Part shown: in pieces, positions 1 to 24,743 of the stretch
Layout of the letters: every line of letters begins with the position of its first letter
Position numbering within the stretch: the first letter of the stretch is position 1
Origin: Nitratidesulfovibrio vulgaris str. Hildenborough
Lineage (GTDB): Bacteria > Desulfobacterota > Desulfovibrionia > Desulfovibrionales > Desulfovibrionaceae
Reading direction: 5' to 3'
Assembly (NCBI RefSeq): GCF_000195755.1
Contig: NC_002937.3
Span: 1,110,001 to 1,142,000, forward strand
DNA length: 32,000 bases
Position numbers and translations under genes: made by a program
Notes under the pieces: model-generated
Database searches by the model: none
What the model was told of the DNA's origin: nothing
The model's input: only the letters and a program-made list of their open reading frames with translations

Positions 1-560
1 CCCGAGGCCTTGCCTATGCTGTCGACGAAGCCGACATCCACACCCTTGATGTAGAAGTCGCTGTTGTCGCTGCTAGTGGTGCCGTCGGAGTTGTCCACAG
101 CCTGAACGACGACCCTGTCGAACAGGACGCCTGTGTAGCTGAACTGTCCGTTGGCGGGAATCGCCTGACTGGCGACCTGTACGTTGCCGAGGAAGAAGAG
201 GACCTGTCCGCGTTCGCCTTCCCCACCGGTGTAGAAGGAACCGGGAGCGTCCATGTTGAACCTGTTGGCGACGCCATCCAGTTCGAAGACCACCCCTTCC
301 TGTTCACCGGAAGTCTTGTCGTCGCGGTAGCCCAGTTCGTTCTCGCGGTCGGGACCATCGCTGCCTGCGACGGGCTTCCCGTCGTAGGTCACGCCGAGGC
401 CGTTACTGGTGAAGTTGGGCGTGCCGCCGTTCACCTGCAACTGCACACCGGGGGCTATCATGTCGCCGTCGCCGGGGTGCGTGTCGGCACCGAAGCCGAC
501 GTGAACAAGGGCGGACTGGCCGAAGTCGTCGGTGACCGCGCCGTTGCTGACCGTCAGCGT
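1..560 (-). repeat. Copy B of a ~185-aa intragenic module of the adhesin, truncated or ending at the window edge
   Basis: Protein: ...VNGGTPNFTSNGLGVTYDGKPVAGSDGPDRENELGYRDDKTSGEQEGVVFELDGVANRFNMDA...SSDNSDFYIKGVDVGFVD. The nucleotide core gtcttgtcgtcgcggtagcccagttcgttctc (323-354) is identical in copy A. Confidence 0.8.
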
Positions 561-3500
561 GGGCGCGTCATCCTTGATGTCGATGTTGATCGTGGCCGAG
601 GTGCTGTCGTTGTCACGGTCGGTCAGCGTCACGGTGATGTCGAGGTCGAACGTCTCGTCGGTGGCCGGCGTTGTATGCGGCGCGTTCCTGTCCAGTTCGA
701 AGGTGTAGGTCACCTTGCCGGTTACCGCATCAAAGCCGGTGATGGTCAGGTTCCCGTAGGGCGTGTCGAGCACTGCGCCTTCGGCGATGTCGACTGTCTG
801 ACCACCGTAGCTCATGGTGAGTGAACCGAGTCCGTCCTTCACGTCGATGGTGAACTCGCGTTCTGCGGTCACCAGCGAACCGAGGCCGTCTTCGGTGCCG
901 CCGGGCAGGTACTTCTCGTACAGTTCACCTTCAGAGCCCTCCAGCCCCTTGATGGAAACGCCGTCGTCCGTCCCCACGATGGTGATGACGAGAGGTGCCG
1001 TTGAAGCATCACCGTCACCGTCCGTGACGGTGTACTTGAAGGTCTCCGTCAACCTGTCCGTCTTGGAGTTGAGGTGCTGTACGCGCGGGTCGTCATTGTT
1101 GAGCGAGTACGAGTAGCTACCATCGGCGTAGATGGTGAGCGTTCCGTATTCACCCTGAATCTCGGTGCTACCGTTTTCGGAGAAGTCGGTCGCAGCACCG
1201 TCGCCCTTGGCGATGTGTGTGACGCGGTTGCCGTCGGCGCTCAAGTCGTAGCCGGGGGCGGTGTCGTTGGAGAGCACATTGCCAGAGGCGATGAGCTTGC
1301 CATCTTCACGTACCCAGTCGGCATCCATCTGGGCGACGGGCATGTCGTCGGTCACCTTGAGCGTGACCGAGCCATCCACGTAGTCACCGTCGATGTCGGT
1401 GCCGCGAACCTTGATGCCGGTGATGGTCACAAGGTCGCTTCCGTTGGCGTGCAGCAGCGGGTCGATGAGTTCGGCGTGAACGGTCACGTTGCCGGTTTCA
1501 CCTGCGTCGATGTTCCCGCCGGAGAGTGAAAGGATGACCGCCTTGTCACCATTGGAGTATCTGCCGACGAGTTTGCCAGATTCGACGGCCCACGTCAGGG
1601 CTGCGCCTGCGCCTTCCATCTGGACGCCGCTGGCGTCGACGAACTTGAACGATTCGAAGTCGTCGGAACCTGCGGTGAAGCTGAGGCTGCCGCTGGTCTT
1701 GTCGGTGTCGAGATAACCGTCGGGTCGCGTCAGCATCGATGCCGCATCGTCATCGAGCGTGAGCGTCAGGGTTCCTGCGCGCGCCGGACCTTCGCCGTCG
1801 TTGATGGCGACGGTGATGGTGTCGGTAAGCTTGGTGTCGCCATCCGAGTCGGTGATGCGCAGGGCGAACTTCAATTCCTGCTTGTAGTCGTGGTCGAGGT
1901 TGTTCTTCGCCGCGAAGGTCCATTCCCCGTCACCGTTGACGCGCAGGATGCCCTTCGAGGTGTAGATGTTCTGGTTGATGCTGTATTCGTTGCCGCCGAT
2001 GACGACCTTGATGGAACTGCCAAGGTCATTGTCGGCCCCCATGGCGTGCGTCCATGTGCCCGCGATGCTCTGCCCTTCGGTGACGGGGCCGGCAGCGGGG
2101 GCGAGGTCGATGGTGGGGGTGTCGTCGACGATGGTGACGGTGAGGGACGCAGAGGCTGACTGGGCATGCCCGTCCGCACCCGTGGTCGTCACCGAGACGG
2201 GGATGACGTCGCCCGTCTTCATGTCGTCGAGGTCTTGTCCGTGCCTGACGTTGTCCTTCAGTGTGTAGCGATACTGGACACTGTAGCCGGAGGTGGCATC
2301 ACCACTGACCCCGATGATTTCCAGCGTGGCATGGGAAGGGACGCCAAGGTAGCCGTCGACGGTCACGTCCTTGCCGTTCATGCCGATGTTGAAGACCTTG
2401 CCCAGCAGGTCGTTGATGGTCTCCACACCGTTTGAGACGGAGAAGGACACCCCGGCGATGCTGACGGACGTGAGGTCTTCGCCGTTGGTGTCGATGCGGA
2501 AGGCACCCTCTACAGCTGCCAGTGACGCATCGTTACCAGCCACAAGGCCGTTCTCGTCGACCACGTGGGCAACGGGAGGCATGTCGATGTCGGGGGCACG
2601 GTCGGCCTCGTTCACCGTGACGGTGAAGCTGCCGGAGGCCGTGTCGCCATCGGTGTCGGTGATGGTGTACGAGAAGCCGAGTTTGCCGCCGTTCTCTGGC
2701 AGGTCGAGCGGTACGCGCTGTGCGAGCGTCCATTCTCCTGTGGCGGTGTTCACGGTGAGCGTGAAGGCCACCTGACCGGAATCGGTACCATCGTCATTGA
2801 TGATGTGACCGACCATGGTTCCTGCAATGGGGTTGCCTTCCGAGTCTCGCTCGGGCTCGATGCTCACGCGGCGTCCATCCAGCGTCCAGATGGAGGCGTC
2901 TGTGATGTCCGCACCGTCCGAGGGGGCGGCTGCACGGTATTCCACGGATTCGGCTTCTGGCTGCTGACCTGAAGCGATGCCATCGAACACCAGTTCGAAC
3001 GAGCCGGGTCTGTCTGCCCCATAGTCGAAGTAGAGCATGCCGGAATGGATATCTACGCTGGCGGCGTCTGCTTCGTGGAAGCTGACGTTCTTGATGTAGA
3101 AGTCGCTGTTGTCGGATGTGCTGAGCCATGTCCTGTCGGTGGCGGTGACGACAACGCGGTCGAAGAGACCGGTGAACTCGATGCTGCCGGCAGTGGAGGA
3201 CGTGATGGTTCGCGCTCCCACAAGCTGGTCGCCGAGGAAGAACTGCACGACACCGCGCTCCCCGGAGCCTTCGCTCCCTGACAGTGCGCCACTGGCGTCC
3301 ATCTCGAAATGGTCGGCGACACCGTTGAGCTTGAAGACCAGCGCTTCCTGCTCATGGGACGTCTTGTCGTCGCGGTAGCCCAGTTCGTTCTCACGGTCGG
3401 GCCCGTCGGCAGCGCCAACCTGCACGCCATCATAGGTTCCACCCAGCCCATTGGCACCGCCGTTGTAAGGGGTGCCGCCGTCCATGCGGATGTCAACGAA

Positions 3501-5117
3501 CCCCGTGTTGGCGTCGGTGCTGGCACTGATGAGGTCGGCGAGGGTGCTGCCGCTGGTGAAGTTGAAGCTGTGCGTGAGCGCGTCATCGGCAACGGAGGCA
3601 TGGGGTGCGTCACTGGCTGCCGCGTAGTCCGCCCGCTCGATGAATTCCTCACTCCCGTACACGCGCGGCCCGTCGTCCCTGACGACGACAGTGATGTTGC
3701 CGGTGGCTGTGTCGGTATCGGTGTCGGTGAGCACCACACCCACGTTGAACTGCAGTGCGTCGTTGTGCGGATGGTCTGTGCTGGCGGGGTCGCCGGGCAA
3801 AGCGTCACCGTCTACTGAATGGTCGAGGGGACGTTCCTGCGTGTAGGTGTACTTGCCGGTATTGTCGATGGTCATGGTGAAGACGGTGAGGCCGTTCGGG
3901 GCGGCGTCATCGCCCTCGGCGACGATGTAGCCGCGCAACGTCTTGCCGTCGTCGCTTACGTCAAAGAGCACTTGTGCGCCCTGTGACGTGAGTGCGGGGC
4001 CGTTCGTCTCGATGGTGGCATCGAATACCAGCGACTGGACACCGTCTGCACCCGCCGAGAAATTCAGCGTGCCCTGCGTTTCGATGACGCCATCGCCCCA
4101 CGGGTCGGCAGGGTTGTCTCCAGTATCGGACACGAGAAGGGGAGTGACATCGCCGGACGTGTTTCCTTCACGGAAATTGGTCTCGTCCACTTCCGCCTGC
4201 CCGCCGATGATGACGGGGGCGTCATCCAGAATCTGGATGTTGAGCGAATCGCTGGCAAGGTCGCCGTCGGTGTCGGTGGCGGTGATGGGGAAGGTCTCGA
4301 AGATGGTGTCGTCACCGGCGGTGTGGTCGGCGTTGCCCGTCAACTCGTACGAGTAGGTGATGACGCCGGTGGCGGGATTGTAGCCGGTGATGGTGAGGGT
4401 GCCGTAGTCTCCGGTGACGGTGCTGTTCACCAGCGCACCCCCGGAGATGACGGTCTCGCCGCCTATGATGACTGTGGCGAGTCCATCGGGGGCGGTGATG
4501 GTGAAGTCGCCGGTCAGCGTCCTGCCAGCCGCGTCAGGTGCGCTACCGCTGGCAAGGGCGGTCTCGTCGACGATGCCCTCTCCGGCACCGATGTCAGGAC
4601 CGCCGGGCGCGATATTGGTTATGGTCACACCGTTGTCGACGATGCCGACGTCGGTAAGCGGCAAAGGTTCTGTGCCACGTTCGAACACCAGCGGGTCGAG
4701 GGTGCCAAGCCGGTCGACGCTGTCCACGAGGTTGCCGGGGTCGTCGGTGTAGTCACCCACACCGCCGCTACCTGCGCCACCGCCTGCCCCGGGGCCCGCT
4801 GCGGGCAGAAGTTCGGCGTTGAAGGCGGTTAGGAAGGCGTCTCCGGGGAGTTCCTGACCTTCGATGACGAAGGTGGGCACGTTGCCGCCTTCAAGCTGGG
4901 CGAAGAAATCGGAAACGATCACTTGCCCGCCTTCAGGGAAGGTGAAGACCAGGTCGTTGCCGGATTTCTCTGTGGTTGCCGCATCAGGGGCGAATTCAAG
5001 AGCGAGTTTCAGCCCGGCGGCGTTCTGTATGGTGATGACTTCGTCAACTGCGGGCGCAGGAAGACGTATCGTACCCGCGGTGGCTTGCTGCGGAGTGATG
5101 GTGCGATTGAGAGGCAT
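1..5117 (-). CDS. Giant secreted repeat adhesin (LapA/RTX-adhesin-like T1SS substrate). Only the 5' ~1705 codons are present; the 3' end lies beyond window position 1.
   Basis: No track ORF occupies the minus frame whose codon first bases are 2 mod 3 between 1 and 5117. That fits one open frame with no in-window stop. The ATG (5117-5115) is preceded by AAAGGGGGGAGCT. Hand translation gives MPLNRTITPQQATAGTIRLPAPAVDEVITIQNAAGLKLALEFAPDAATTEKSGNDLVFTFPEGGQVIVSDFFAQLEGGNVPTFVIEGQELPGDAFLTAFNAELLPAAGPGAGGGAGSGGVGDYTDD. Spot translations at 1-100, 961-1040, 1801-1860, 2581-2700, 3061-3120 and 3291-3500 stay open. They give T/V/D/G-rich beta-sandwich-type repeats with Ca-binding-like motifs (YTITDTDGDTASGSFTVTVNEADRAP, RITDSDGDTKLTDTITVAIN, YTVTDGDGDASTAPLVITIVGTDDG). 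Confidence 0.88.
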   Translation of the reverse strand, partial: MPLNRTITPQQATAGTIRLPAPAVDEVITIQNAAGLKLALEFAPDAATTEKSGNDLVFTFPEGGQVIVSDFFAQLEGGNVPTFVIEGQELPGDAFLTAFNAELLPAAGPGAGGGAGSGGVGDYTDDPGNLVDSVDRLGTLDPLVFERGTEPLPLTDVGIVDNGVTITNIAPGGPDIGAGEGIVDETALASGSAPDAAGRTLTGDFTITAPDGLATVIIGGETVISGGALVNSTVTGDYGTLTITGYNPATGVITYSYELTGNADHTAGDDTIFETFPITATDTDGDLASDSLNIQILDDAPVIIGGQAEVDETNFREGNTSGDVTPLLVSDTGDNPADPWGDGVIETQGTLNFSAGADGVQSLVFDATIETNGPALTSQGAQVLFDVSDDGKTLRGYIVAEGDDAAPNGLTVFTMTIDNTGKYTYTQERPLDHSVDGDALPGDPASTDHPHNDALQFNVGVVLTDTDTDTATGNITVVVRDDGPRVYGSEEFIERADYAAASDAPHASVADDALTHSFNFTSGSTLADLISASTDANTGFVDIRMDGGTPYNGGANGLGGTYDGVQVGAADGPDRENELGYRDDKTSHEQEALVFKLNGVADHFEMDASGALSGSEGSGERGVVQFFLGDQLVGARTITSSTAGSIEFTGLFDRVVVTATDRTWLSTSDNSDFYIKNVSFHEADAASVDIHSGMLYFDYGADRPGSFELVFDGIASGQQPEAESVEYRAAAPSDGADITDASIWTLDGRRVSIEPERDSEGNPIAGTMVGHIINDDGTDSGQVAFTLTVNTATGEWTLAQRVPLDLPENGGKLGFSYTITDTDGDTASGSFTVTVNEADRAPDIDMPPVAHVVDENGLVAGNDASLAAVEGAFRIDTNGEDLTSVSIAGVSFSVSNGVETINDLLGKVFNIGMNGKDVTVDGYLGVPSHATLEIIGVSGDATSGYSVQYRYTLKDNVRHGQDLDDMKTGDVIPVSVTTTGADGHAQSASASLTVTIVDDTPTIDLAPAAGPVTEGQSIAGTWTHAMGADNDLGSSIKVVIGGNEYSINQNIYTSKGILRVNGDGEWTFAAKNNLDHDYKQELKFALRITDSDGDTKLTDTITVAINDGEGPARAGTLTLTLDDDAASMLTRPDGYLDTDKTSGSLSFTAGSDDFESFKFVDASGVQMEGAGAALTWAVESGKLVGRYSNGDKAVILSLSGGNIDAGETGNVTVHAELIDPLLHANGSDLVTITGIKVRGTDIDGDYVDGSVTLKVTDDMPVAQMDADWVREDGKLIASGNVLSNDTAPGYDLSADGNRVTHIAKGDGAATDFSENGSTEIQGEYGTLTIYADGSYSYSLNNDDPRVQHLNSKTDRLTETFKYTVTDGDGDASTAPLVITIVGTDDGVSIKGLEGSEGELYEKYLPGGTEDGLGSLVTAEREFTIDVKDGLGSLTMSYGGQTVDIAEGAVLDTPYGNLTITGFDAVTGKVTYTFELDRNAPHTTPATDETFDLDITVTLTDRDNDSTSATINIDIKDDAPTLTVSNGAVTDDFGQSALVHVGFGADTHPGDGDMIAPGVQLQVNGGTPNFTSNGLGVTYDGKPVAGSDGPDRENELGYRDDKTSGEQEGVVFELDGVANRFNMDAPGSFYTGGEGERGQVLFFLGNVQVASQAIPANGQFSYTGVLFDRVVVQAVDNSDGTTSSDNSDFYIKGVDVGFVDSIGKAS
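3046..3610 (-). repeat. Copy A of the same ~185-aa intragenic module, about 3.04 kb from copy B
   Basis: Protein: ...RMDGGTPYNGGANGLGGTYDGVQVGAADGPDRENELGYRDDKTSHEQEALVFKLNGVADHFEMDAS...TSDNSDFYIKNVSFHEADAA. The second shared nucleotide block cttgatgtagaagtcgctgttgtc is at 3090 versus 45. Confidence 0.8.
4794..4805 (-). other. P-A-A-G di-alanine motif at residues 105-108 of the adhesin; candidate BTLCP/LapG cleavage site
   Basis: Codons ccc gca gcg ggc were read directly, in the context NAELL-PAAG-PGAGGGAGSGG. The motif follows a ~100-residue N-terminal globular-looking segment and is followed by a Gly-rich linker. Confidence 0.6.
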
Positions 5118-5206
5118 AGCTCCCCCCTTTGGTCTTGCACCCTGCCATGCTGGACATGCAGGGCGGTTGCTCGCTTACGCCAGCCTGATGCTCTCCGGGC
5201 TGGCAT

Positions 5207-5233
5207 GGCGGCGGATTCCCCAAATCCGCCGCC
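5207..5233 (-). promoter_or_regulatory. Perfect 11-bp stem / 5-nt loop hairpin in the tolC-adhesin intercistronic spacer
   Basis: ggcggcggatt-cccca-aatccgccgcc. No U-tract follows on the minus strand. Two further short stems flank it (ccagcc/ggctgg at 5180-5203, ccctgc/gcaggg at 5141-5164). Confidence 0.5.
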
Positions 5234-5281
5234 AATTGCTGACGCTTGGTCGGGCCGCTGGCGACCCTGTAGCCGTGTGTC

Positions 5282-6652
5282 CTAGCGGATGGTGCCTTCT
5301 TCGGGCACGTTTCGCAGTTCACTTCTGTCGATGGACAGGGAGGCAAGAAGGTTTCCGCCAAGTGCGAGCAGGCGGTAGGCGGTTCCGGCTTCGTTGGCCT
5401 TCGCAGTCACAAGCTGCACTTCGGAGCTGTACAGTTCATTCTCGGCGTCGAGAACGTCAAGCAGACTGCGCTGGCCGACGAGGAACTGCTGCATGTATGT
5501 GTCGCGCGTCTGGGTGTTGTACGTGACCGCCGTGGTGTAGAAACTGCTCTGCTCGTGCGCTGAAAGGTAACGGCTCCATGTGGCGCGGGTCTCTTCGTTC
5601 AGGGTGTCGAGCAGGTTCTGGAGTTCCTGCCTGCTCTGGCGAACGCGGGCTGCCGAACCTCTCACGGCTGCAACGTCTGCACCGCCGTCATAGATGTTCC
5701 AGTTCACGCGCATCATGGCCGTGGTACCCCATGCGTAGGATTCGCTGCTCTCTACGCGCTCCTTGTATGAAGGGCCGACCTCAAGATATACATTAGGGTG
5801 AAAACGCGATTTGTCGAGGTCTTCCTGACCGCGGGCCGCCTGAATGTCAGACTGGTAGGCGGCGATTTTGGGGTTGGCCGTCAGGCTCGCCCCCAGTGCC
5901 GTCTCGAAGCTGGCGGGCGCGGTGTCGGGAATGCCAGCCCGTTCGAGTTCGGTGGGAACCTCCATGCCGGTCAGGCGCTTGTAGGCGGCTTCGGCAACTT
6001 CGAGGGCACTCCTGCTTTCCACGAGAGTGGATTGGGCGCGGGCAAGTCGGCCTTGTGTCTGGGTGACATCGGCGATGCTGGCCACACCCATCTTCTGCCG
6101 TTCACTCTGCGAGCCGAGGATGGTCTGGTGCTGCTGGACGTTGATCTCGGACAGCCTGACGATTTCGCGCTGGCGCAGCACCTCGATGTGGGCGAGCACT
6201 GCGTCGAGTCCGAGGGCTTCGGCGTTATCCATCAGCCTGTTGTCGGCAGAGTCGAGTTTGGCCTTGCCGACATCTACACGGCTTGAAGTCGCGAAGCCGT
6301 CCCAGACGGTCTGCGTGAGTACGGCCGAGGCGTCGCCACGTTCGGTGAACTCATCATCCTTGTTGGACTGTCTTGAAGTCGTGTCGCTGTATTGTTCTGC
6401 GCCGTATCCTGCGCGAACATCGACGCGCGGCAGCCAGCCTGCTCTTGCGCGGCGAAGATCGTGCGTTGCAGCTTCTCGATTCTCTTGGAAGACTTTCAGC
6501 TTCGGGTTGCTGTTGATCGTAGAAAGAACGCTGTCCTTCAGTTTGGTCTCTGCGAACGAGACGTCTGGAAGAGACAGAAAAGCACCTGATGCAGAAATAA
6601 GAGCGCACGCGGTTGCGCCTGTGATCATTTTTTTGCAGATTGATGACTTCAT
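5282..6652 (-). CDS. tolC: TolC-family type I secretion outer membrane protein
   Basis: 456-aa ORF with an N-terminal signal peptide (MKSSICKKMITGATACALISASGAFLSLPDVSFA). It shows the duplicated coiled-coil/OEP architecture typical of TolC. AAGGAG lies 6 nt upstream of the ATG. It sits directly upstream of the adhesin on the same strand. Confidence 0.92.
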   Translation of the reverse strand: MKSSICKKMITGATACALISASGAFLSLPDVSFAETKLKDSVLSTINSNPKLKVFQENREAATHDLRRARAGWLPRVDVRAGYGAEQYSDTTSRQSNKDDEFTERGDASAVLTQTVWDGFATSSRVDVGKAKLDSADNRLMDNAEALGLDAVLAHIEVLRQREIVRLSEINVQQHQTILGSQSERQKMGVASIADVTQTQGRLARAQSTLVESRSALEVAEAAYKRLTGMEVPTELERAGIPDTAPASFETALGASLTANPKIAAYQSDIQAARGQEDLDKSRFHPNVYLEVGPSYKERVESSESYAWGTTAMMRVNWNIYDGGADVAAVRGSAARVRQSRQELQNLLDTLNEETRATWSRYLSAHEQSSFYTTAVTYNTQTRDTYMQQFLVGQRSLLDVLDAENELYSSEVQLVTAKANEAGTAYRLLALGGNLLASLSIDRSELRNVPEEGTIR

Positions 6653-7053
6653 ATCTTGCTCCTTTATTGTGCTTTTTCATTCTCTCTACATCAAAGATAT
6701 AGAGCGATAGTTGTTTGTTGTTCTGATTGGATGTATGATTATTTTGTGTAGTATCGCGTTGTGTCACTTTTGCTGGCTGCTTGCGTCTCAGCCTTTGAAC
6801 GTGCTTGACGCCTTCGGCGGTATAACCTGTAGACTCTTGCGATTATTTGTTTGTCGGTTTTCTTTACACGTAACATCCTGACACGGTGTCGGCAAGTGCA
6901 CAAAGAAAGATTCTAACGCCTTGCCAGCGGGGGGGAATCTGTCCTTTTGTTGCACAGGGCTGAAAAGGGTTGTACCTTTCTCAACTTTCGATAGGTCGCT
7001 GCGTTACGTGGCAGGGTCGAAAAACGGCTTGTTGTCACCTGCTTGGGGGAAAA
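6653..7053. promoter_or_regulatory. AT-rich divergent control region between tolC-adhesin (minus) and the ABC-MFP-protease-receptor operon (plus)
   Basis: This is the only markedly AT-rich stretch in the left half of the window. It contains the palindrome GACACgGTGTC (6880-6890) and a G7 run (6929-6935). I could not place a convincing -35/-10 or -24/-12 pair. Confidence 0.5.
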
Positions 7054-9384
7054 GTGTCTGGAATTGATGAAGAACATATGGGCGGTTATCAGGGAGCCGA
7101 CGCGGGTGACGCCTCTGGGCAGGACCGTGTTGCGGCGTCAGGTGTCGCTTCGGAACATTATGCAAAAAATACGCCAGTGGACCTTCCTTCGGGGGTCGCA
7201 GCCGGTGACGTGGACTATGCGCCGCCCCTCATGCAGTGTCTGGCCTTGCTGTTCCGTCTGAACGGAAAGCCCGTCTCGACACGCTACCTCATGTCCGGCT
7301 TGCCCATGGGGGCCACTGAAGGCCCGGCCCTCACTGCCGCGTGTCTGCGGGCTGCAAGAGTCGCTGGCATGGAGGCCCGTGTCGCCTATAAGCCGACCTT
7401 GCGGCAGATTTCACCGTTGACGCTGCCGTGCATCATGCTGCTGAAAGACGAGAAGGCCTGCATCCTGATGCGGATACAGGGTGAGCAGGCCGAGGTGCTC
7501 TTTCCCGAGACGGGCATGGATGCCGTCACCGTGCCGCTTTCACGTCTCGCCGAAGAATACGCCGGGTATGCCGTCTTTGGCAGCCCTGTGAGCAAACTCG
7601 ACAAACGGGCCAGCGAGATGCGCCTGCTCAAGGTCAAACGCTGGTTCTGGGACACCCTGCTCCATTTTCTGCCAATATACAGGCACGTGCTGCTTGCCAG
7701 TGTCGTGGTGAACCTGCTCACGGTGGCAAGCCCGCTTTTCTTCATGAACGTCTACGACCGTGTCGTACCCAACAGTGCCACCGACACCCTCTGGGTGCTG
7801 GCCGTTGGTATCGGTATTGCCTACATCTGCGATTTCGTGCTCCGGAACCTGCGCAGCTACTTTGTCGACGTGGCCGGGCGCAATGCCGATGTGGTGCTTG
7901 CCAGCAGGCTCATGCAGCATCTCATGGCCGTGCGCCTTGACAACAAGCCCGATTCGACCGGGTCGCTCGCGAACAACCTGCGCGAGTTCGAGTCGTTGCG
8001 TGAATTCTTCGGCTCGACGACGCTTCTTGCCCTGGTCGACCTCCCATTCCTCGTTCTCTTCCTGTTCATCGTCGCGCTGATAGGGGGCGAGATGATCGCG
8101 TTGCCGGCCATAGCCATCCCGGTCGTGCTGGGAGTGGGTATGCTCGTGCAGTACCCGTTCCAGCGTGTCGCCGAAGCAGGCTACAAGGAGGCGATGCAGA
8201 AGAACGCGCTGCTGGTGGAGATCATCAACGGGCTCGAGACGGTCAAGGCGTCCATGGCGGAAGGGCGGCTGCAACATGCGTGGGAGAAGGTCGTCGGCAT
8301 GAGTGCCCGTTCCAACGCGCATTCGAAGGGGCTGGCCAACCTTTCCATCACCGTGTCGCTGCTGGTCACCCAGCTTGTGAGCGTGGGCATCATCATCTGG
8401 GGTGTCTACAAGATAAGCGACGGTACGCTCACCATGGGTGGGCTCATCGCCTGCAACATGCTGTCAGCACGCGCCATGGCCCCCCTGAGCCAGATAGCCG
8501 CCATGCTGGCACGGTTGCAGCAATCGCGCATGGCCCTGAAGTCGCTCGACATTCTCATGCAGCTGCCTGTCGAGCGCCCTGAAGACAGGCCCTATGTGGA
8601 CTTCGGACCACTCGAGCACTCGCTTGAGCTGGAGTCCGTCTCCTTTGCCTACCCGGGGGCCGAACGGCTTGCGCTGGACGGTGTGTCGCTGCGGATACGC
8701 CCAGGCGAGAAGGTGGGGGTCATCGGCAAGATGGGGTCGGGGAAGTCGACACTCGGACGTCTCATGATGGGACTCTACCAGCCACGGGACGGGGCCGTGA
8801 AGTTCGGCGGCGTGGATATCAGGCAGATGGACATGGCCGACCTGCGCGGTCGCATCGGCTATCTGTCACAGGACAACTATCTTTTTTACGGTACGTTGCG
8901 CGACAACATCGCCATGGGTGTGCCCAATGCCGATGACCGCATGATCATGCGTGCCGCCGACGTCGCGGGTGTCACCGAGTTCGCACGCAACCATCCCGCA
9001 GGGTTCGGCTTGCAGGTCGGCGAACGGGGCATGGCGTTGTCGGGGGGGCAACGGCAGGCTGTCGCCCTTGCCCGCGCGCTGCTGCACGACCCCGACGTGC
9101 TCATCCTCGACGAACCTACCAGTAACATGGACACGGGCTCTGAATTCGCATTCAAACAGCGACTCAGGGCCCTGCTTGGTGACAAGACGCTGGTGCTCAT
9201 CACCCATCGTATGAGTGTCATCGACCTTGTGGATAGACTCGTCGTCGTCGATGGCGGTCGCATCGTGGCCGACGGTCCGCGTGATGCCGTCATCAAGGCG
9301 CTTCGCAGTACCGGGGTGCAAGCCGCGCCTGCTGCCCGCTTCAGGAAGAACGGCACGGTCGGTGCCGCCGGGGGGGCTGCCTAG
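7054..9384 (+). CDS. Type I secretion ABC transporter (permease/ATPase) with an N-terminal C39-like domain; LapB/HlyB class
   Basis: The 6-TM ABC_membrane region is followed by Walker A GKMGSGKST, signature LSGGQRQ and Walker B LILDEPTS. The track starts at TTG 6970. I prefer in-frame GTG 7054 (GGGGGA 3-5 nt upstream) or ATG 7078, so the start is uncertain within 6970-7078. Confidence 0.9.
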   Translation: MSGIDEEHMGGYQGADAGDASGQDRVAASGVASEHYAKNTPVDLPSGVAAGDVDYAPPLMQCLALLFRLNGKPVSTRYLMSGLPMGATEGPALTAACLRAARVAGMEARVAYKPTLRQISPLTLPCIMLLKDEKACILMRIQGEQAEVLFPETGMDAVTVPLSRLAEEYAGYAVFGSPVSKLDKRASEMRLLKVKRWFWDTLLHFLPIYRHVLLASVVVNLLTVASPLFFMNVYDRVVPNSATDTLWVLAVGIGIAYICDFVLRNLRSYFVDVAGRNADVVLASRLMQHLMAVRLDNKPDSTGSLANNLREFESLREFFGSTTLLALVDLPFLVLFLFIVALIGGEMIALPAIAIPVVLGVGMLVQYPFQRVAEAGYKEAMQKNALLVEIINGLETVKASMAEGRLQHAWEKVVGMSARSNAHSKGLANLSITVSLLVTQLVSVGIIIWGVYKISDGTLTMGGLIACNMLSARAMAPLSQIAAMLARLQQSRMALKSLDILMQLPVERPEDRPYVDFGPLEHSLELESVSFAYPGAERLALDGVSLRIRPGEKVGVIGKMGSGKSTLGRLMMGLYQPRDGAVKFGGVDIRQMDMADLRGRIGYLSQDNYLFYGTLRDNIAMGVPNADDRMIMRAADVAGVTEFARNHPAGFGLQVGERGMALSGGQRQAVALARALLHDPDVLILDEPTSNMDTGSEFAFKQRLRALLGDKTLVLITHRMSVIDLVDRLVVVDGGRIVADGPRDAVIKALRSTGVQAAPAARFRKNGTVGAAGGAA

Positions 9385-9386
9385 CC

Positions 9387-10732
9387 ATGCCGCTGTTCCA
9401 ATGGAAAAAACGCGACAGTGTTGCGAGGGAAGACGTACAATTCATGAGCGAGGTCGATGCAGCCTTGCATCGGGCCGGGCATCCTTATGCCTACCTGCTT
9501 TCGTGCGCCATCTTCGGCGTGTTCGCCATCTTTTTCGTGTGGGCGGCTTTCGCCCCGCTGGATGAGGTCACGCGCGGACAGGGGCAGGTCATTCCCTCGC
9601 AGCGTGTACAGGTCATCCAGAACCTCGAAGGCGGCATCCTGCGCGAACTGCTCGTCCATGAGAGCCAGATTGTGGAAAAGGGCGACGTGCTGCTGCGTAT
9701 CGACAACGAAGCAGCCGAGAGTTTCTACCGCGATGCCCTTGGCAAGTCCGTCGAACACCAGATTGCCATCGCCCGCCTCGAAGCCGAACTCGAAGGGCGT
9801 GACCCCGTGTATCCTGCTGAACTCATGACCGAATGGCCTCAGGTCGTGGAGAACCAGGCGGATGTCTACCGGGCGCGAAGACAGCAGGTCGCCGTCGAAC
9901 AGAGGGTCCTCGAAGCGCAGCTGCACCAGAAGGAGCAGGAAATCGAGGAGATGACGAGCCGCAAGCGACAGCTTGAAGATTCGTTGCGCGTCGCCGTGGA
10001 GCAACGTGAAATCGCCCGCCCGCTCATGGAGAAGCAGATATACCCGCGCGTCGAGTACCTTTCGCTCGAGCAGAAGGTCATCTCCCTGCGAGGCGAGATA
10101 AGCTCGCTTGCCATATCCATTCCCAAGGCCCGCGCGGCAGCGGATGAGGCCAAGGAACGCCTCGCCTTCCGCAAGGCACAGATACGTTCCGAGGCGCTTG
10201 AGGAACTCAACAAACGACGGGGCGAGTTGAACTCCCTGCGTGAGACGCTTTCTGCCGGGGGCGACCGGGTGACACGTACCGACGTGCGCAGCCCGGTGCG
10301 AGGAACGGTCAAGCGGCTCATCATCAATACTGTCGGGGGGGTCATCAAACCGGGTGAGCCCATCATGGAAATCGTGCCACTGGATGACACCCTGCTCATC
10401 GAGGCCCGGATACGCCCCGCCGACATCGCCTTCCTGCATCCCGACCAGAAGGCCGTGGTCAAGATAACGGCCTATGACTATTCCATCTACGGGGGGCTTG
10501 AAGGGGTCGTCGAACAGATAAGCGCCGACACCATCGAGGACAGGAAGGGCGAGTTCTACTATCTGGTGAAGTTGCGCACCCGCAAGAGTGCCATCGTGTA
10601 TCGGGGTGAGGCGCTGCCCATCATGCCCGGTATGACCGCAACCGTGGATATTCTCACAGGCAAGAAGACGGTTCTCGATTATCTGCTCAAGCCCATCCTC
10701 AAGGCACAGCAGAATGCCCTGCGGGAGCGTTG

Positions 10733-10733
<1 letters not shown>
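9387..10733 (+). CDS. HlyD-family type I secretion membrane fusion protein (LapC-like)
   Basis: 448 aa with an N-terminal TM (LLSCAIFGVFAIFFVWAAF), a long coiled-coil and C-terminal beta-barrel motifs (ARIRPADIAFLHPDQKAVVKITAYDY, MPGMTATVDILTGKKTVLDYLL). The ATG lies 2 nt after the ABC stop. Confidence 0.93.
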
Positions 10734-14061
<3,328 letters not shown>

Positions 14062-14279: not shown

Positions 14280-15446
14280 CTACATGGCGTCGCCAGCGTC
14301 AAGCTGGTTGATCTGCTCTTCGACAGCCTTTTCAAGTTCTTCGGGCAGTCCCATGATGTCGACGTTGAGGAAGCCCCGCACGATGGTGGAGGTGGCTTCA
14401 TCTTCGTCAAGACCGCGTGCCATGAGGTATTCGATCTCTTCCTGCGCGATCTTGCCCACTGCGGCTTCGTGCGACAGTTCGACCCCGTCCTGCGTACCTT
14501 CGAGCTCGGGGATGGCGTGGATGACACCGCCGCCGAGGATGAGGCCCTTGCATTCGAGGTGCCCGCGGGCAGGTACGGCATGGCCCGCGATGTGACCGCG
14601 GTTGATGATGGTGCCGCCTGTGGTCATGGTGCGGGCGATGATCTCGCCGCGCGTGTCGGGGGCTTCGAGCAGGATGCGGTTGCCGGTGTCGACGTACGAG
14701 CCTGTAGGGGCAACGATGACCGAGTTGAAGCGGGCCACCGAACCACGACCACCGAGGGTGATGGTGGGGTACATCTGCAGGTCGGTGACAGGCTTGAGCA
14801 GTACATAGTTGCTGAGGAAGACGGCGTCTTCTTCAAGGTAGCCTGCGGAACGCGGACGGACGGCGGCCTCTTCACCCCAGTTGTGGATCATGGTGAAGGT
14901 GAGCTTGCCGCCCTTGTGGACGTAGAATTCGGAGATGCCGAGGTGGGCCACCGAACGGGTGTCATGCGCGGTGGCACAACCCGTGATGATGTGCATCTCG
15001 GCCCCTTCTTCGACGACCACCACGTTGTGCACGTTCTGTCCGACGCCGTTGCCCTTGATGAACAGGCACGACTGGACGGGGGCTTCTATCTTCGCGCCCG
15101 CGCGGGCACGGATGAAGTAGCCGCCATGCAGGTGCTCGTCGGCGGCACGGGTGTACTCGTCCTTGTTGCGGTCGACGAGTTTCCAGAAATAGTCGGGCAG
15201 ACCGTGGTAGGTGTCGAGGGCCTGCTTGATATCGAGAATCTCGAGCCCTTCCTGACGGCTGGTGCAGTGCACACCCGAATGGTTCATGTGCATGAACGAG
15301 CCGGCGAGATTCTGCTGGTTCACGTCGATACCGGCGTAGAGCAGGCGCTGCTTGTCGGCGGCGTCAAGCTGGGTGAGGTCGCCGATAGAGGAAGCCTGTG
15401 CGCCGTCGAACTGGTAGCGCGAGAGGTCGACTTTCTTGAAGCTCAT
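14280..15446 (-). CDS. SufB/SufD-family Fe-S cluster assembly scaffold protein
   Basis: 388 aa with a beta-helix-type SufBD core (GAEMHIITGCATAH, GHLECKGLILGGG, IPELEGTQDGVELSHEAAVGKI). Its start abuts the SufC stop. Confidence 0.88.
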   Translation of the reverse strand: MSFKKVDLSRYQFDGAQASSIGDLTQLDAADKQRLLYAGIDVNQQNLAGSFMHMNHSGVHCTSRQEGLEILDIKQALDTYHGLPDYFWKLVDRNKDEYTRAADEHLHGGYFIRARAGAKIEAPVQSCLFIKGNGVGQNVHNVVVVEEGAEMHIITGCATAHDTRSVAHLGISEFYVHKGGKLTFTMIHNWGEEAAVRPRSAGYLEEDAVFLSNYVLLKPVTDLQMYPTITLGGRGSVARFNSVIVAPTGSYVDTGNRILLEAPDTRGEIIARTMTTGGTIINRGHIAGHAVPARGHLECKGLILGGGVIHAIPELEGTQDGVELSHEAAVGKIAQEEIEYLMARGLDEDEATSTIVRGFLNVDIMGLPEELEKAVEEQINQLDAGDAM

Positions 15447-15447
15447 G

Positions 15448-16224
15448 CTACAGTCCTCCCTTGATGTCGCTATCGAGGCAGCGCAGACATTCCTGATAGC
15501 CGTGCTTGCCGATGTGCTCGAGGATGTCGCGCGGGCGTGCCTCGCAGCACAGGTGCCCGTCGTACATCACCTGACCGCGGTCGGCGTTGACGTATTCGAG
15601 GATGTAGCCGGTGTGCGTGATGATGAGCCCGGCGGTCTTGCAGGCTGCCTTGCGCTGCTTGATGCTGGCGCAGGATGCCGGGGCGATGCCGTCGAGCAAC
15701 TGGCGCGCCGTCTGCCCGATGAGCGACATGTTCTCGAGGTCGACCCCGGATTCGGGTTCGTCGAAGAGAACAAGGTCGGGCTGCTGGGCCATGAGCTGCA
15801 GAAGTTCGGAGCGCTTTATCTCGCCGCCGGAGAACCCGGCGTTGACGTCACGTTCGAGGAAGCGGTCGAAGTTGACGCGCTGCGCCAGCCCTTCGACGTC
15901 CACCTCGCGTCCGCGTCCGCACATGCGCACGAGGTGCCCGGTCTTGAGACCATGTATGGTGGGCGGGCGCTGGAACGACATGCCCATGCCGAGACGGGCG
16001 CGTTCGTACATGGGCGCGTTGGTGATGTCATGACCCTTGAAAAGTATCTGACCCTGCGTGACCTTGTAGTTGGCGAAGCCCATGAGCGTCATGAGCAGGG
16101 TGGTCTTGCCGGAACCGTTGGGACCGAAAAGAATGAAGGTTTCACCGGGGCGGATGTGGAGATTGATGCCCTTCAGCACCTCGACATCGCCGATGCAGAC
16201 GTGAAGATCCCGTATCTCGAGCAT
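15448..16224 (-). CDS. sufC: SufC-type Fe-S assembly ABC ATPase
   Basis: MLEIRDLHV..., Walker A GPNGSGKTT, signature FSGGEIKR, Walker B LVLFDEPESGVD. AAGGGG lies 7 nt upstream of ATG 16224. The track's 16272 start adds 16 unlikely residues. Confidence 0.9.
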   Translation of the reverse strand: MLEIRDLHVCIGDVEVLKGINLHIRPGETFILFGPNGSGKTTLLMTLMGFANYKVTQGQILFKGHDITNAPMYERARLGMGMSFQRPPTIHGLKTGHLVRMCGRGREVDVEGLAQRVNFDRFLERDVNAGFSGGEIKRSELLQLMAQQPDLVLFDEPESGVDLENMSLIGQTARQLLDGIAPASCASIKQRKAACKTAGLIITHTGYILEYVNADRGQVMYDGHLCCEARPRDILEHIGKHGYQECLRCLDSDIKGGL

Positions 16225-16724
16225 TGTGGACCCCTTGGAGATGGCTTCATGCGGTACGCGCCCCTCATGCAAGGGGGGACTGCATGGCAGACCTGAACTT
16301 ATGCGGCATACCCCCGGTCAAGTCAATGTGGACTTTTCCGGTATGTGATAGGTGCGTTTCTGGTGTGTGAAGGGGCCTTCTGGAGATGATGACCTCCGCA
16401 ATACATGCCGTGCAGATGGCGGGAGGTCGTTTGCCGCCTGCGGTGCCCCTGCCCCAGACGCAATCCCCATATCCTCTCCGTCTCTTCGCCGCCCCGCCCC
16501 TGTCCGTCGTCCTGTCATTGGACTGCCCGTTGCCGATATCGAGTCCCCACGTTTCAGGGGCTCCTGTCTGCCTCGCGTCGTGTACGCCATCGAGGCTGTT
16601 GCCGGGGCGACGTGCCGGGGGGATGCGCAAAAGCTCGGGCAGATGCTCTGCGCAGGACGCCGTGAGGCTGCGCAAGGCGCCGGGGGCGTTGCGGGGGGGG
16701 GCTGTCCGAGACGCCCGATGTCGT

Positions 16725-17465
16725 TCAGTCCTGCAAGGGAGGAACAGCCTTTCTGCTACGCCCGAAAGGGCCGTGAGGGGAGCAGAAGTAGCAGCGTTCG
16801 GGCCTGCGGAACAACGGCAGGAGCAGCACTCCGGCGATGAACCCGCCTAGGTGGGCCCACCATGCGATGCCCGCGCCCTCGTCTCCGAGGGCGGAAAGGC
16901 CGGAGGCCAACTGTACGAGAAACCAGATGCCGAGGTACACGAGGGCGGGCAGGTCGAACACCAGCGGGATGAAGACCAGAAGTACAAGCGTCGTGACCCG
17001 CGCGTGGGGGTACAGGAGGAAATACGCGCCGAGAACACCTGCAATGGCGCCCGAGGCACCGACGACCGGTATCGTCGATGCGGGGGAGAAGAAGACATGT
17101 GTGAACAGCGCTGCCAGACCGCACGTGAGATAGAACACCGTGAACCGCCACGGACCCATGACATCTTCGATGTTGTCGCCGAAGATCCATAATGTCCACA
17201 TGTTGACGAGAAAGTGCCCCCAGCCGCCATGCAGGAACATATGCGTGAAGAAACTGGCTTCGCCGCCGGGCGGGAAACCAGCCGAAAGTGCCCAGTCGGG
17301 GAACGAGAAGCGGGCGGGCACGACACCGAAGACATGAAAGACCGTGTAGACCTCCGAAGGGGCAAGTCCCTGCTGCCACAGGAAGACCGCAAGGTTCAGG
17401 CCGAGAATCGTCCAGACGGCCCACGGCGTATGGACTCTGGGGATGGTGTCGCGCAGGGGGAACAT
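16725..17465 (-). CDS. Rhomboid-family intramembrane serine protease
   Basis: Polytopic protein with HMFLHGGWGHFLVNMW, the catalytic GASGAIAGVLG motif and the WWAHLGGFIAG histidine motif. AGGAGGA lies before the ATG, 11 nt after the upstream stop. Confidence 0.9.
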   Translation of the reverse strand: MFPLRDTIPRVHTPWAVWTILGLNLAVFLWQQGLAPSEVYTVFHVFGVVPARFSFPDWALSAGFPPGGEASFFTHMFLHGGWGHFLVNMWTLWIFGDNIEDVMGPWRFTVFYLTCGLAALFTHVFFSPASTIPVVGASGAIAGVLGAYFLLYPHARVTTLVLLVFIPLVFDLPALVYLGIWFLVQLASGLSALGDEGAGIAWWAHLGGFIAGVLLLPLFRRPERCYFCSPHGPFGRSRKAVPPLQD

Positions 17466-17476
17466 GCGTTGTCCTC

Positions 17477-19102
17477 CTAGTCCTTCCAGATGTCGTGCAG
17501 TTCTTCGGCGAGTCTTGCTTCTGCCGCTTCGCGGCGCGTATCGAGTGCGGCGATGAAACGGCCCGTCTCGCCGGACAGGTCTTCCAGCGAACCGCCGTTG
17601 TCGATGAGCATGTCACAGGCGCGCATCTTGTCCTCGTCCGGCCACTGCCACGCGGTCATGGCGGCGATGGTCTCGGGTGTCCAGCCGCGTATCTCGGTCA
17701 GGCGGTGCATGCGTTCGCGTTCAGGACAGGCCACCCCTGCCAGCACGTCGCATGAACCGTCGCCGCTTCGCCAGCCTGCTTCGAGGAACAGGGGGACTTC
17801 CGCCACGGCCACGGGTGCGCCCGTTTCGGCATGGCGTGTGTAAAAGGCCTCCATGTCGTGCCTGACGAGGGGGTGCACCATCTGTTCGACCTCGCGGCGC
17901 AGCCCCGGTTCAGTCTGCATGGCGGCAAGCAGGGCCCTGCGGTCGACAGGTGCGGAGTCGTCGGGCACGAACCTGTCGCCGAAGCGTCCGCGCAGGCAGT
18001 GCCAGCCATCGGCCCCCGGTTCATAGAGGGCTGCCACCGCCGCGTCGGCACTCCATGTGGGAACGCCGCGGTCTTGCAGGCAGTGCAGCAGGGCGGACTT
18101 GCCGCAACCCGGTGAGCCTGTGATCACCACCCGTGTCATGCGACGCGCGAGGGCGATGGCGAGGTCGGGGAAGTCCTGCGGGGGCGGGCAGGTGAAGCGC
18201 AACCGTTCCCCGGTGACGGGGTGGGTGAAGGCAAGATGCCATGCATGCAGCATCTGCCTTGCGCCGTAGCCCTGTTCGCGTAGACGGGCTGGCGTGCCGG
18301 GGCCGTAGAGTTGGTCGCCCCAGAGGGGAAAGCCCGCGTGGGCCATGTGCACTCTTATCTGGTGCGTGCGGCCCGAATGGATGCGCACCGCCACGAGGGC
18401 GTAGTGTCCTTCCGGGGCGGCATGGAGCACGCGCCATTCGGAACGGGCGGGTTTGCCGCCCTTCACCACCGCCATGCGCACCTTGTGGGTGGGGTGGCGC
18501 CCGATGGGGGCGTCGACCTCTCCGGTGGCGGGAGGCACGCCATGCACGAGGGCGAGGTATTCCTTTTCGACGGTGCGCTCGGCGAAAGCCTCGCTCAGCT
18601 TCAGGCGCACACCCTCGGACAATGCCACGAGAAGCAGGCCGCTCGTATCCTTGTCGATGCGGTGGACGATGCCGGGTCTGAACCCTTCTTGCGCGCGCAG
18701 CGCGTCGAAGTGGTGCACCAGACGATGCACCAGCGTGCCTTCGGGGCAACTGGGGCAGGGGTGCACCGTGAGTCCGGCGGGCTTGTCGATGACCAGCAGG
18801 TGCTCGTCGCGATGGATGATGGTCAGGTCGCCCTCTTCGGGCTCCACGGCTGTGGCGGCGGGGGCTATGGCGAGTTCCACCCTTTGTCCGGAGCGTAGCC
18901 GGGTACTGGGGGTGGTGCAGACGGTGCCGTCGACCGTGCACTGACCGTCGCGTATGGCACGCTTGATCTTTTCGCGTGAAAGGTCGGTATGGGACAGGGC
19001 CTCGCCGAGAAAGCGGTCGAGCCGTTCGTTGCGCATCCCGGCGGGAACCGTCAGGCTGTGTGCCTGCTCCTTTCCGGAGAGGGCTGTCTGTGTGTTCTGC
19101 AT
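17477..19102 (-). CDS. Fusion protein: RluD-type 23S rRNA pseudouridine synthase (S4 + PseudoU_synth_2) with C-terminal dephospho-CoA kinase (CoaE)
   Basis: The N-terminal part has RLDRFL, an S4-like segment and the catalytic HRIDKDTSGLLLVA. The C-terminal ~205 aa has the P-loop ITGSPGCGKS (~18094-18120) and CoaE-like helices. The frame is continuous. There is no SD before the internal Met at 18139. The start (19102) has no obvious SD and may instead be the Met 22 codons downstream. Confidence 0.85.
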   Translation of the reverse strand: MQNTQTALSGKEQAHSLTVPAGMRNERLDRFLGEALSHTDLSREKIKRAIRDGQCTVDGTVCTTPSTRLRSGQRVELAIAPAATAVEPEEGDLTIIHRDEHLLVIDKPAGLTVHPCPSCPEGTLVHRLVHHFDALRAQEGFRPGIVHRIDKDTSGLLLVALSEGVRLKLSEAFAERTVEKEYLALVHGVPPATGEVDAPIGRHPTHKVRMAVVKGGKPARSEWRVLHAAPEGHYALVAVRIHSGRTHQIRVHMAHAGFPLWGDQLYGPGTPARLREQGYGARQMLHAWHLAFTHPVTGERLRFTCPPPQDFPDLAIALARRMTRVVITGSPGCGKSALLHCLQDRGVPTWSADAAVAALYEPGADGWHCLRGRFGDRFVPDDSAPVDRRALLAAMQTEPGLRREVEQMVHPLVRHDMEAFYTRHAETGAPVAVAEVPLFLEAGWRSGDGSCDVLAGVACPERERMHRLTEIRGWTPETIAAMTAWQWPDEDKMRACDMLIDNGGSLEDLSGETGRFIAALDTRREAAEARLAEELHDIWKD

Positions 19103-19211: not shown

Positions 19212-19838
19212 GTGGCTGTTTACGTCGTCGACCATCCGCTGGTCAAACACAAGCTGGGCCGCCTGCGCCAGCATGATGTCCCGGTGAGCGAATTCCGGGC
19301 CATCGCCAACGAACTCTGCCGTCTTCTCGCCTACGAGGCCACGAAGGACCTCGAAACGGAGAAGGTCAGCGTACAGGGTTGGGCCGGGCCTGTCGAGGTC
19401 GACCAGATAAAGGGCAAGAAGATCACCGCCGTGCCCATCCTGCGCGCCGGTCTCGGCATGCTCGACGGCTTCCTGGATATGATTCCCGGTGCCAAGGTCA
19501 GCGTGGTGGGCATGTTCCGCAACGAGGAGACCCTCGAACCGGTGCAGTACTACACCAAGCTCGCCAAGAACATCGACGAGCGCATGGCTGTCATCCTCGA
19601 CCCCATGCTGGCGACCGGCGGCACCCTCGACGCCACCATCGACCTTCTCAAGAATGCAGGCTGCCCGCAGATAAAGGGACTTTTCCTCGTCGCCGCGCCC
19701 GAAGGGCTGAAGCGCATCGTGGACAAGCACCCCGATGTGGACATCTACGTCGCCGCCGTGGATGAACGCCTGAACGAACACGGCTACATCCTGCCCGGTC
19801 TCGGCGACGCGGGCGACAAGATATTCGGCACCAAGTAA
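19212..19838 (+). CDS. upp: Uracil phosphoribosyltransferase
   Basis: 208 aa. The PRPP motif ([13 protein letters not shown]) and C-terminal [17 protein letters not shown] are diagnostic. GTG start with AAGGAGA upstream. Confidence 0.95.
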
Positions 19839-19856
19839 GACGGTATCCGCAATGGT

Positions 19857-19921
19857 GGGGCATTTTTCCGGAGTCGGCGCATCGTGAATGTGCCGGCTTC
19901 GTTGAAGAATGCCCCTTTTTT
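19857..19921 (+). terminator. Branched hairpin plus T6 run downstream of upp; terminator or attenuator ahead of the permease gene
   Basis: The outer stem is ggggcatt (19857-19864) / aatgcccc (19908-19915), followed by tttttt. An inner imperfect stem is cggcgcat/atgtgccg. Confidence 0.55.
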
Positions 19922-20017
19922 GCGGCTTTCAGGCATCCGCAGGCGGGGTAGGGCGAACGTGCGCCGGGCGTCGTCGTCCATGATGTGCAGAGATAACCGA
20001 ACAGGGAGGAGGCAGAG

Positions 20018-24531: not shown

Positions 24532-24743
24532 GATCTGCTCCTTCTGCGGGGTGGCGCGGAATACGTGCGACCTCGTGAAATAGTCCACGGCCGCGGGTTT
24601 CGCAAGCCGACAGTTTGTGGCGGGCAGGGAGCGGCCATGGGCGGGATGAAGTCCCTAACGGCCGGGGAGGTGTCTAGTCGTGCTGCCGGAGACTGTCCGG
24701 GACTTGCCGGTTCAGAACCCTTGTACCGCCCGACAACGAACGT

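Follow-up and report, generated by a model that had tools for sequence, protein, structure and literature searches.

The N-terminus of the Nitratidesulfovibrio vulgaris adhesin DvhA as a very probable retention module with a DvhG cut site at PAAG 105-108

Organisation of the dvh locus

The stretch of DNA analysed here (the window) comprises 32,000 nucleotides from Nitratidesulfovibrio vulgaris str. Hildenborough (contig NC_002937.3, positions 1,110,001 to 1,142,000), and its left end is occupied by the 5' part of dvhA (DVU1012; window 1 to 5117, minus strand), which encodes a giant adhesin of a type I secretion system (T1SS). The assignment of this gene relies on its ATG frame, its repeat domains and the published residue numbers. 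We focus on the first 108 residues of the protein, encoded exactly by window positions 4794 to 5117 (minus strand), which very probably constitute the periplasmic N-terminus of a LapA-like biofilm adhesin that is retained and then released through a cut by the protease DvhG at the motif PAAG. The dvhA start codon is the ATG at 5117, with a Shine-Dalgarno sequence (GGGGGAG) closely upstream; an in-frame stop is found further upstream at 5177, and the interval contains no alternative start codon. The frame stays open for 1705 codons and exits through the left window edge. The published DvhA has 3038 amino acids, of which the C-terminal ~1330 lie beyond the window, and its C-terminal domain has been described as serralysin-like (PMC13090378).

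Translation of the minus strand from the ATG at 5117 places P105-A106-A107-G108 at window 4794 to 4805, where the reverse complement reads CCC GCA GCG GGC, in agreement with a first-pass annotation that had been made from these letters and had singled out this motif. The DvhG cut would fall between A106 (4800 to 4802) and A107 (4797 to 4799), as indicated by conservation and by a published di-arginine mutant. Two elements precede the motif: a predicted retention ("plug") domain rich in beta-strands (residues 1-91; 4845 to 5117, minus strand), delimited from an AlphaFold2 model, from the relatives of DvhA and from a weak match to the BapA prefix-like domain, and a predicted targeting helix with a turn (residues 92-104, GDAFLTAFNAELL; 4806 to 4844, minus strand), delimited from the model and from conservation. 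A further di-alanine, N32-A33-A34-G35 (5013 to 5024, minus strand), is located inside the folded domain, between modelled strands and in a column that varies, and is considered a decoy. Residues 109-121 (PGAGGGAGSGGVG; 4755 to 4793, minus strand) form a Gly-rich linker that appears unstructured from its low predicted local distance difference test (pLDDT) values and that has a conserved Gly/Ala composition; it is presumably the part of the adhesin that runs through the outer-membrane channel. The earlier annotation had also described a flexible Gly-rich linker after PAAG, which indeed exists, the whole of it being encoded just outside the interval 4794 to 5117 to which that annotation referred.

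Beyond this N-terminal part, the body of DvhA matches T1SS-143 repeat, VCBS, DUF5801 and bacterial cadherin-like domains. A module of ~180 residues is present twice in the visible protein (window 3084 to 3611 and 39 to 566, both minus strand; residues ~503-678 and ~1517-1693), the copies sharing 50% identity with an E-value of 7e-45 in a two-fragment comparison. The module contains '...DGPDRENELGYRDDKTS.EQE..VF.L.GVA..F.MDA.G...SDNSDFYIK.V' and is covered by no Pfam or NCBIfam model. A self-BLAST of DvhA for internal repeats returned the identity match alone.

The adjacent genes code for transporter components, a protease and a receptor. On the minus strand, dvhE (5282 to 6652) codes for a TolC-family outer-membrane channel of the T1SS (TIGR01844, type_I_sec_TolC, 267 bits against a cut-off of 225; Pfam OEP). 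On the plus strand lie dvhB (7078 to 9384), coding for an LssB/LapB-type T1SS ABC permease/ATPase (TIGR03375, 975 bits, cut-off 693); dvhC (9387 to 10733), coding for a periplasmic adaptor of the HlyD family (TIGR01843, 419 bits, cut-off 209); dvhG (DVU1019; 10733 to 11953), coding for a membrane-anchored BTLCP cysteine protease; and dvhD (DVU1020; 11956 to 14061), coding for a dCache-PAS-HD-GYP receptor of cyclic di-GMP (c-di-GMP) that restrains DvhG. The BTLCP gene that the first-pass annotation had invoked as a neighbour is dvhG, whose product matches Pfam Peptidase_C93 with 59.3 bits against a cut-off of 27. DvhD was recognised through HD_5 (135 bits), PAS_4 and PDB entry 9RC0, and neither a GGDEF nor an EAL domain was found in it by Pfam and NCBIfam scans. 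The open reading frame (ORF) of dvhB is open from a TTG at 6970 (804 amino acids), and gene callers place the start at the ATG at 7078, giving a product of 768 amino acids that is also called in identical public contigs. Similarly, the dvhD frame extends back to a GTG at 11911, inside the 3' end of dvhG, and is called from the ATG at 11956 (701 amino acids). A promoter and terminator scan of window 5000 to 7200 performed no better than on shuffled sequences, and no terminator-like site was found between dvhE and dvhA.

DvhG is a BTLCP that works like LapG, in a divergent and membrane-anchored form. Numbered from the ATG at 10733, its landmarks are D316-C317-E318, H352 and D367, with C317, H352 and D367 making up the Cys-His-Asp triad. 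Its score against the LapG equivalog model NF045674 (90 bits) is below the cut-off of 320, and its catalytic core was reported to be 33% identical in the comparison with LapG (Font et al. 2026, PMC13090378). Within residues 1-215 (window 10733 to 11380, plus strand), a hydrophobic helix begins at residue 17, and the catalytic domain follows after a further ~175 residues in which Ala, Gly, Ser, Pro and Arg abound. According to the same authors, most DvhG orthologs carry signal peptides rather than a membrane anchor (PMC13090378).

As an exact 60-base scan of the genome contig collection with the PAAG region gave no match, the species representative evidently not containing the exact sequence, the identity of the locus was taken from PDB sequences and published residue numbers. 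The dvhD ORF equals PDB chain 9RC0_A at every residue over 328 residues and spans 9RC2 and 9RBZ end to end with similar bits per residue, all three entries having been deposited as DvhD of Desulfovibrio vulgaris Hildenborough (Font et al. 2026, PMC13090378). The published DvhA residues I85, G87, L90, F95, F99, A106, A107 and G119 all fit the protein of the window, D316-C317-E318 of the protease fits the published D316A/E318A and C317A mutants (PMC13090378, PMC10990149), and the exact 406-amino-acid DvhG sequence is found again, within an unchanged gene order, in many public assemblies. On account of these matches, the window is identified at the sequence level as the dvh locus (DVU1012-DVU1020) of D. 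vulgaris Hildenborough, and the adhesin as DvhA (DVU1012, BfsA). Protein and locus are apparently those published as DvhA/DvhG/DvhD, no difference being seen in the comparable parts.

Conservation and modelled structure of the N-terminal module

An exhaustive HMMER search with DvhA residues 1-125 retrieved 750 representative proteins at E≤1e-3, most of them 1000-6000 amino acids long, and nearly all the matches were situated at the extreme N-terminus (starting at residues 1-20). Of the top matches, 143 were of sufficient length for the motif to be assessed, and [PT]AAG stands at residues 92-117 in 135 of them, as PAAG (109) or TAAG (26), with the conserved segment F-[LF]-x-A-[LF]-x-x-[DE]-L-[LM] upstream and a Gly/Ala-rich stretch downstream. 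The F-[LF]-x-[AST]-[LF] pattern of the targeting helix is likewise conserved in relatives. In an alignment of 21 diverse relatives, A106, A107 and G108 are invariant, as is L103, and F95 and P109 are kept in at least 90% of the sequences; the column of NAAG 32-35 varies.

The AlphaFold2 model of DvhA residues 1-130 (mean pLDDT 80.6) shows strands between residues 3 and 91, a block with pLDDT values of 81-93, followed by a helix at 92-99 and by disorder after about residue 105, with pLDDT <50 for 111-122. Both the folded N-terminal domain of about 100 residues and the flexibility of the segment after PAAG, as proposed in the first-pass annotation, are borne out by this model. In the confidently modelled domain, strands 26-30 and 37-40 flank NAAG 32-35, consistent with the dismissal of this motif, in the same annotation, as part of the fold. 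A Foldseek comparison with the PDB returned beta-roll-like folds (TcdB, CyaA RTX block V) with a TM of about 0.5 and a best E-value of 1e-3, weak matches that were not read as homology.

Because AAG at 106-108 is invariant, the NAAG column is variable and NAAG is embedded in a confidently predicted domain, PAAG rather than NAAG is supported as the probable cut site. One could argue instead that PAAG 105-108 arose by chance where Ala and Gly abound, the real cut falling elsewhere, at NAAG 32-35, DAAG 195-198 or another site. The composition of visible DvhA (9% Ala, 13% Gly) and the presence of other xAAG tetrapeptides at residues 32, 195 and 1007 speak for such an origin, and the conservation pattern and the position of NAAG within the fold speak against it. 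Moreover, [TAP]AA[GV] is found at only two sites in the 1705 visible residues, 105 and 1007, and chance is an unlikely origin for the position of PAAG, because only 1.2% of 5000 composition-preserving shuffles place a motif start within residues 95-125. As for the site at 1007, in the extracellular repeats, it would be beyond a periplasmic protease.

This second PAAG (DLAPAAGPVTEG; window 2086 to 2097, minus strand; residues 1007-1010) is located deep in those repeats, and is presumably a chance occurrence out of the reach of the protease.

Comparison with LapA- and BapA-type adhesins

The classic counterpart of this arrangement, that of LapA, LapG and LapD in Pseudomonas fluorescens Pf0-1, shares with it a giant T1SS adhesin whose folded N-terminal retention domain is accompanied by a targeting helix, by a [T/A/P]AAG site some 105-110 residues from the N-terminus (A108-A109 in LapA) and by a Gly-rich linker, together with a Ca-dependent BTLCP protease, control by c-di-GMP and LapB/C/E-type transporter genes nearby. 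The dvhA locus displays several of the features by which LapA-like adhesins are recognised, namely an N-terminal fold of ~100 residues, a motif at 90-120, a helix before the cut, a Gly-rich disordered segment, and BTLCP and transporter genes. The two systems nevertheless differ in several aspects. In DvhA the spacers around the helix are shorter and the DP motif is absent; DvhG combines a transmembrane anchor with a disordered linker some 180 residues long; the receptor DvhD is a dCache-PAS-HD-GYP protein, whereas LapD has a HAMP-GGDEF-EAL architecture; and the retention domain of DvhA itself docks on the protease (PMC13090378). The protease, the receptor and the shorter helix spacing have already been discussed by Font et al. 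(PMC13090378). The layout and the cut site of the first-pass annotation stand, with two corrections to the LapA-type picture: at the sequence level the DvhA domain does not belong to the LapA retention-module family, and the c-di-GMP receptor is the HD-GYP protein DvhD in place of LapD.

The sole family signal of the DvhA N-terminal domain is the BapA prefix-like domain, which DvhA matches below threshold (20.9 bits against a cut-off of 27 for Pfam PF22783; 19.4-19.7 against 35 for NCBIfam NF033677). At E≤0.1 this domain is matched by 20 of the 21 relatives, with a best E-value of 4.7e-8. In BapA/Bap-type adhesins it is also the N-terminal domain of giant T1SS adhesins, and the central 'DLVFTFxDGGxIVLxDF' strand pair matches model positions 38-81. 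A phmmer search of PDB sequences with residues 1-150 had no significant match.

A second D. vulgaris adhesin, DVU1545 (BfsF), has the same type of retention domain, the helix and a [T/A/P]AAG motif, and is also cut by DvhG (PMC13090378). It differs from DvhA in being encoded outside the window and in its shorter N-terminus (published fragment 1-111).

Cleavage by DvhG and retention of the adhesin

The 106-AA-107 motif of DvhA had already been pointed out by Karbelkar et al. (2024, PNAS, PMC10990149), who swapped N-terminal segments of DvhA into P. fluorescens LapA. In their experiments DvhG freed the chimera from the cell surface, its expression shifting the chimeric adhesin from the surface to the supernatant, and this release needed C317 and the transmembrane helix of DvhG (PMC10990149). 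Subsequently, Font et al. (2026, Nat Commun, PMC13090378) reported that DvhG cuts reporters carrying DvhA 79-129 and 1-129 in vitro in a Ca-dependent reaction that is blocked by EGTA, and that a di-arginine substrate shows pronounced resistance. The dependence of cleavage on C317 and on the Ca-binding site is likewise found in this literature. Cleavage of DvhA by DvhG, and its dependence on the di-alanine, have been shown in this way, and the proposal of the first-pass annotation that PAAG is a protease cut site agrees with the published cleavage and with the resistance of the PRRG mutant (PMC10990149, PMC13090378). Even the assay which that annotation recommended, in vitro cleavage with and without Ca and with an AA-to-RR substrate, is available, with a Ca-dependent reaction and a resistant RR substrate as its outcome (PMC13090378). 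The PAAG assignment is correct, yet already known and experimentally validated on exactly this protein, and its value is that a Lap-type cleavage site can be recognised from raw sequence.

Several observations count against describing this N-terminus as a LapA-like module retained and then cut at PAAG. Regarding the cut, the AA-to-RR chimera was only partly protected in vivo under over-expression of DvhG (PMC10990149), and the available portions of PMC10990149 and PMC13090378 report no mapping of the new N-terminus. Regarding the sequence around it, the 'DP' turn between helix and cut site is absent, DvhA reading ...FNAELL-PAAG. Regarding retention, the swap of the full retention module into LapA was unstable, its surface level compared with the negative control not being significant (P = 0.098; PMC10990149). 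Regarding the family, no LapA-type retention-module model appeared among the NCBIfam matches of DvhA at E≤1 or of the 21 relatives at E≤0.1, and the comparison of the family profile with three Pseudomonas 'retention module-containing' N-termini gave an hhalign probability of 0.8%, a weak negative given the shallow template. The DP turn is a consensus of gammaproteobacterial substrates (PMC13090378), and the relatives of DvhA read [DE]L[LM]-[PT]AAG at this place.

The residual processing of the RR chimera under over-expressed DvhG (PMC10990149) is also the experimental result that fits a cut elsewhere than at PAAG, and there may be minor alternative cut sites. In vivo, however, the 105-PRRG-108 chimera showed greater resistance (PMC10990149), and in vitro the RR substitution was strongly resistant (PMC13090378). 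Taken together with the conservation of AAG and the shuffling result, this leaves a chance PAAG with the real cut at another site as an extremely unlikely explanation. The exact peptide bond, probably A106-A107, is deduced from mutation.

The role of the N-terminal domain as a plug is less secure than the cleavage, because the full-module swap lacked stability and gave a surface signal not significantly over background. The domain might act mainly as a protease-docking or BapA-type 'prefix' module, the adhesin being retained by something else and the cut at PAAG not removing any plug. The BapA prefix-like domain as the only family signal (20 of 21 relatives, best E 4.7e-8), the unmatched LapA retention-module models, the failure to find profile similarity to Pseudomonas LapA N-termini and the behaviour of the swap would all be compatible with such a role. 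So would the reported docking of the domain on DvhG: inclusion of the retention domain improved cleavage, the substitutions I85E, L90E and F95E reduced it, and F95 and F99 sit on the beta-sheet of DvhG (Font et al. 2026, PMC13090378). On the other hand, biofilm formation by the strain with the retention-module swap remained significantly above that of the lapA deletion, and expression of DvhG moved the chimera from the surface to the supernatant (PMC10990149). Furthermore, a T1SS substrate that begins with a fold, a helix, a cut site and an unstructured Gly-rich linker, in this order, has the layout of adhesins with two-step secretion. A module devoted mainly to docking is considered very unlikely. 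The plug reading of the first-pass annotation keeps its support from the layout, with the correction that this domain is, in addition, a docking surface for the protease (Font et al. 2026, PMC13090378).

A LapA-like adhesin retained by its N-terminus and released at PAAG suggests the following sequence of events. DvhA would be exported C-terminus first through the adjacent T1SS (DvhB, DvhC and DvhE), and its beta-rich domain (residues ~1-91) would fold and be unable to pass the TolC-like channel, so that the adhesin stays anchored and its Gly-rich segment 109-121 comes to lie within the pore or close to it. At low c-di-GMP, the HD-GYP receptor DvhD would no longer restrain the Ca-dependent DvhG, which would dock on the retention domain and on helix 92-99 and cut between A106 and A107 of PAAG. 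Release of the adhesin and dispersal of the biofilm would follow. The restraint of DvhG by DvhD and c-di-GMP was reported in a reconstituted Pseudomonas host (PMC10990149), and we infer that events follow this order in D. vulgaris as well, and that the DvhA domain plugs the native DvhE channel. PAAG would then be the switch point at which a c-di-GMP signal, relayed by DvhD and DvhG, becomes release from surfaces.

Distribution of the DvhA-type module

The named relatives of the module all belong to Desulfovibrionaceae (Nitratidesulfovibrio, Desulfovibrio, Bilophila and Mailhella), and the module occurs in no fewer than 750 clusters (50% identity), many of which lie in contigs of the gut metagenome type. 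Related Nitratidesulfovibrio and Desulfovibrio genomes have at least two adhesin genes with a DvhA-type N-terminus. At two of the relatives' loci (L014 and L015), one adhesin gene is divergent from an ABC-HlyD-BTLCP-DvhD cluster, without a TolC gene between them; at five others (L007-L011), the adhesin genes are unlinked to the protease and have a TolC homologue downstream. The gene order of the window differs from that of the relatives' loci, with TolC between the adhesin and the ABC gene. This two-adhesin arrangement mirrors the pair formed by DvhA and DVU1545 in D. vulgaris. A tblastn search of plasmids with a short-form member of the family gave no match.

The only mildly new angle is at the family level, where there is apparently a large, Desulfovibrionaceae-centred family of BapA-prefix-like retention modules with an invariant AAG. 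It is possible, with the balance tipping slightly to the other side, that the DvhA-type N-terminal module is a sequence family of its own, distantly BapA-prefix-like, which evolved separately from the gammaproteobacterial LapA module, or diverged from it past recognition, while having the same invariant AAG, and which serves both as plug and as protease dock. If so, a DvhA-type domain with [P/T]AAG at residues 92-117 would be a rule for flagging BTLCP-released adhesins across the family.

Other genes of the window

No match was obtained in tRNA and Rfam scans of the whole window, and no Pfam match was found for the ORFs at 21511 to 22482 and 22741 to 23850 (plus strand). Housekeeping genes fill the rest of the window, at 14280 to 16272, 16725 to 17465 and 23410 to 24588 on the minus strand and at 19212 to 21277, 27928 to 28995 and 29907 to 31349 on the plus strand. 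This set comprises a SufBD/SufC pair, a rhomboid protease, a putative upp (read off the ORF translation), a xanthine/uracil permease, an aminotransferase, a glucokinase and a pyridine-nucleotide-disulphide oxidoreductase. In addition, a single ORF of 541 amino acids at 17477 to 19102 (minus strand) combines S4, RluD-type pseudouridine synthase and dephospho-CoA kinase (CoaE) domains, an unusual joining of an RNA-modification enzyme to an enzyme of CoA biosynthesis.

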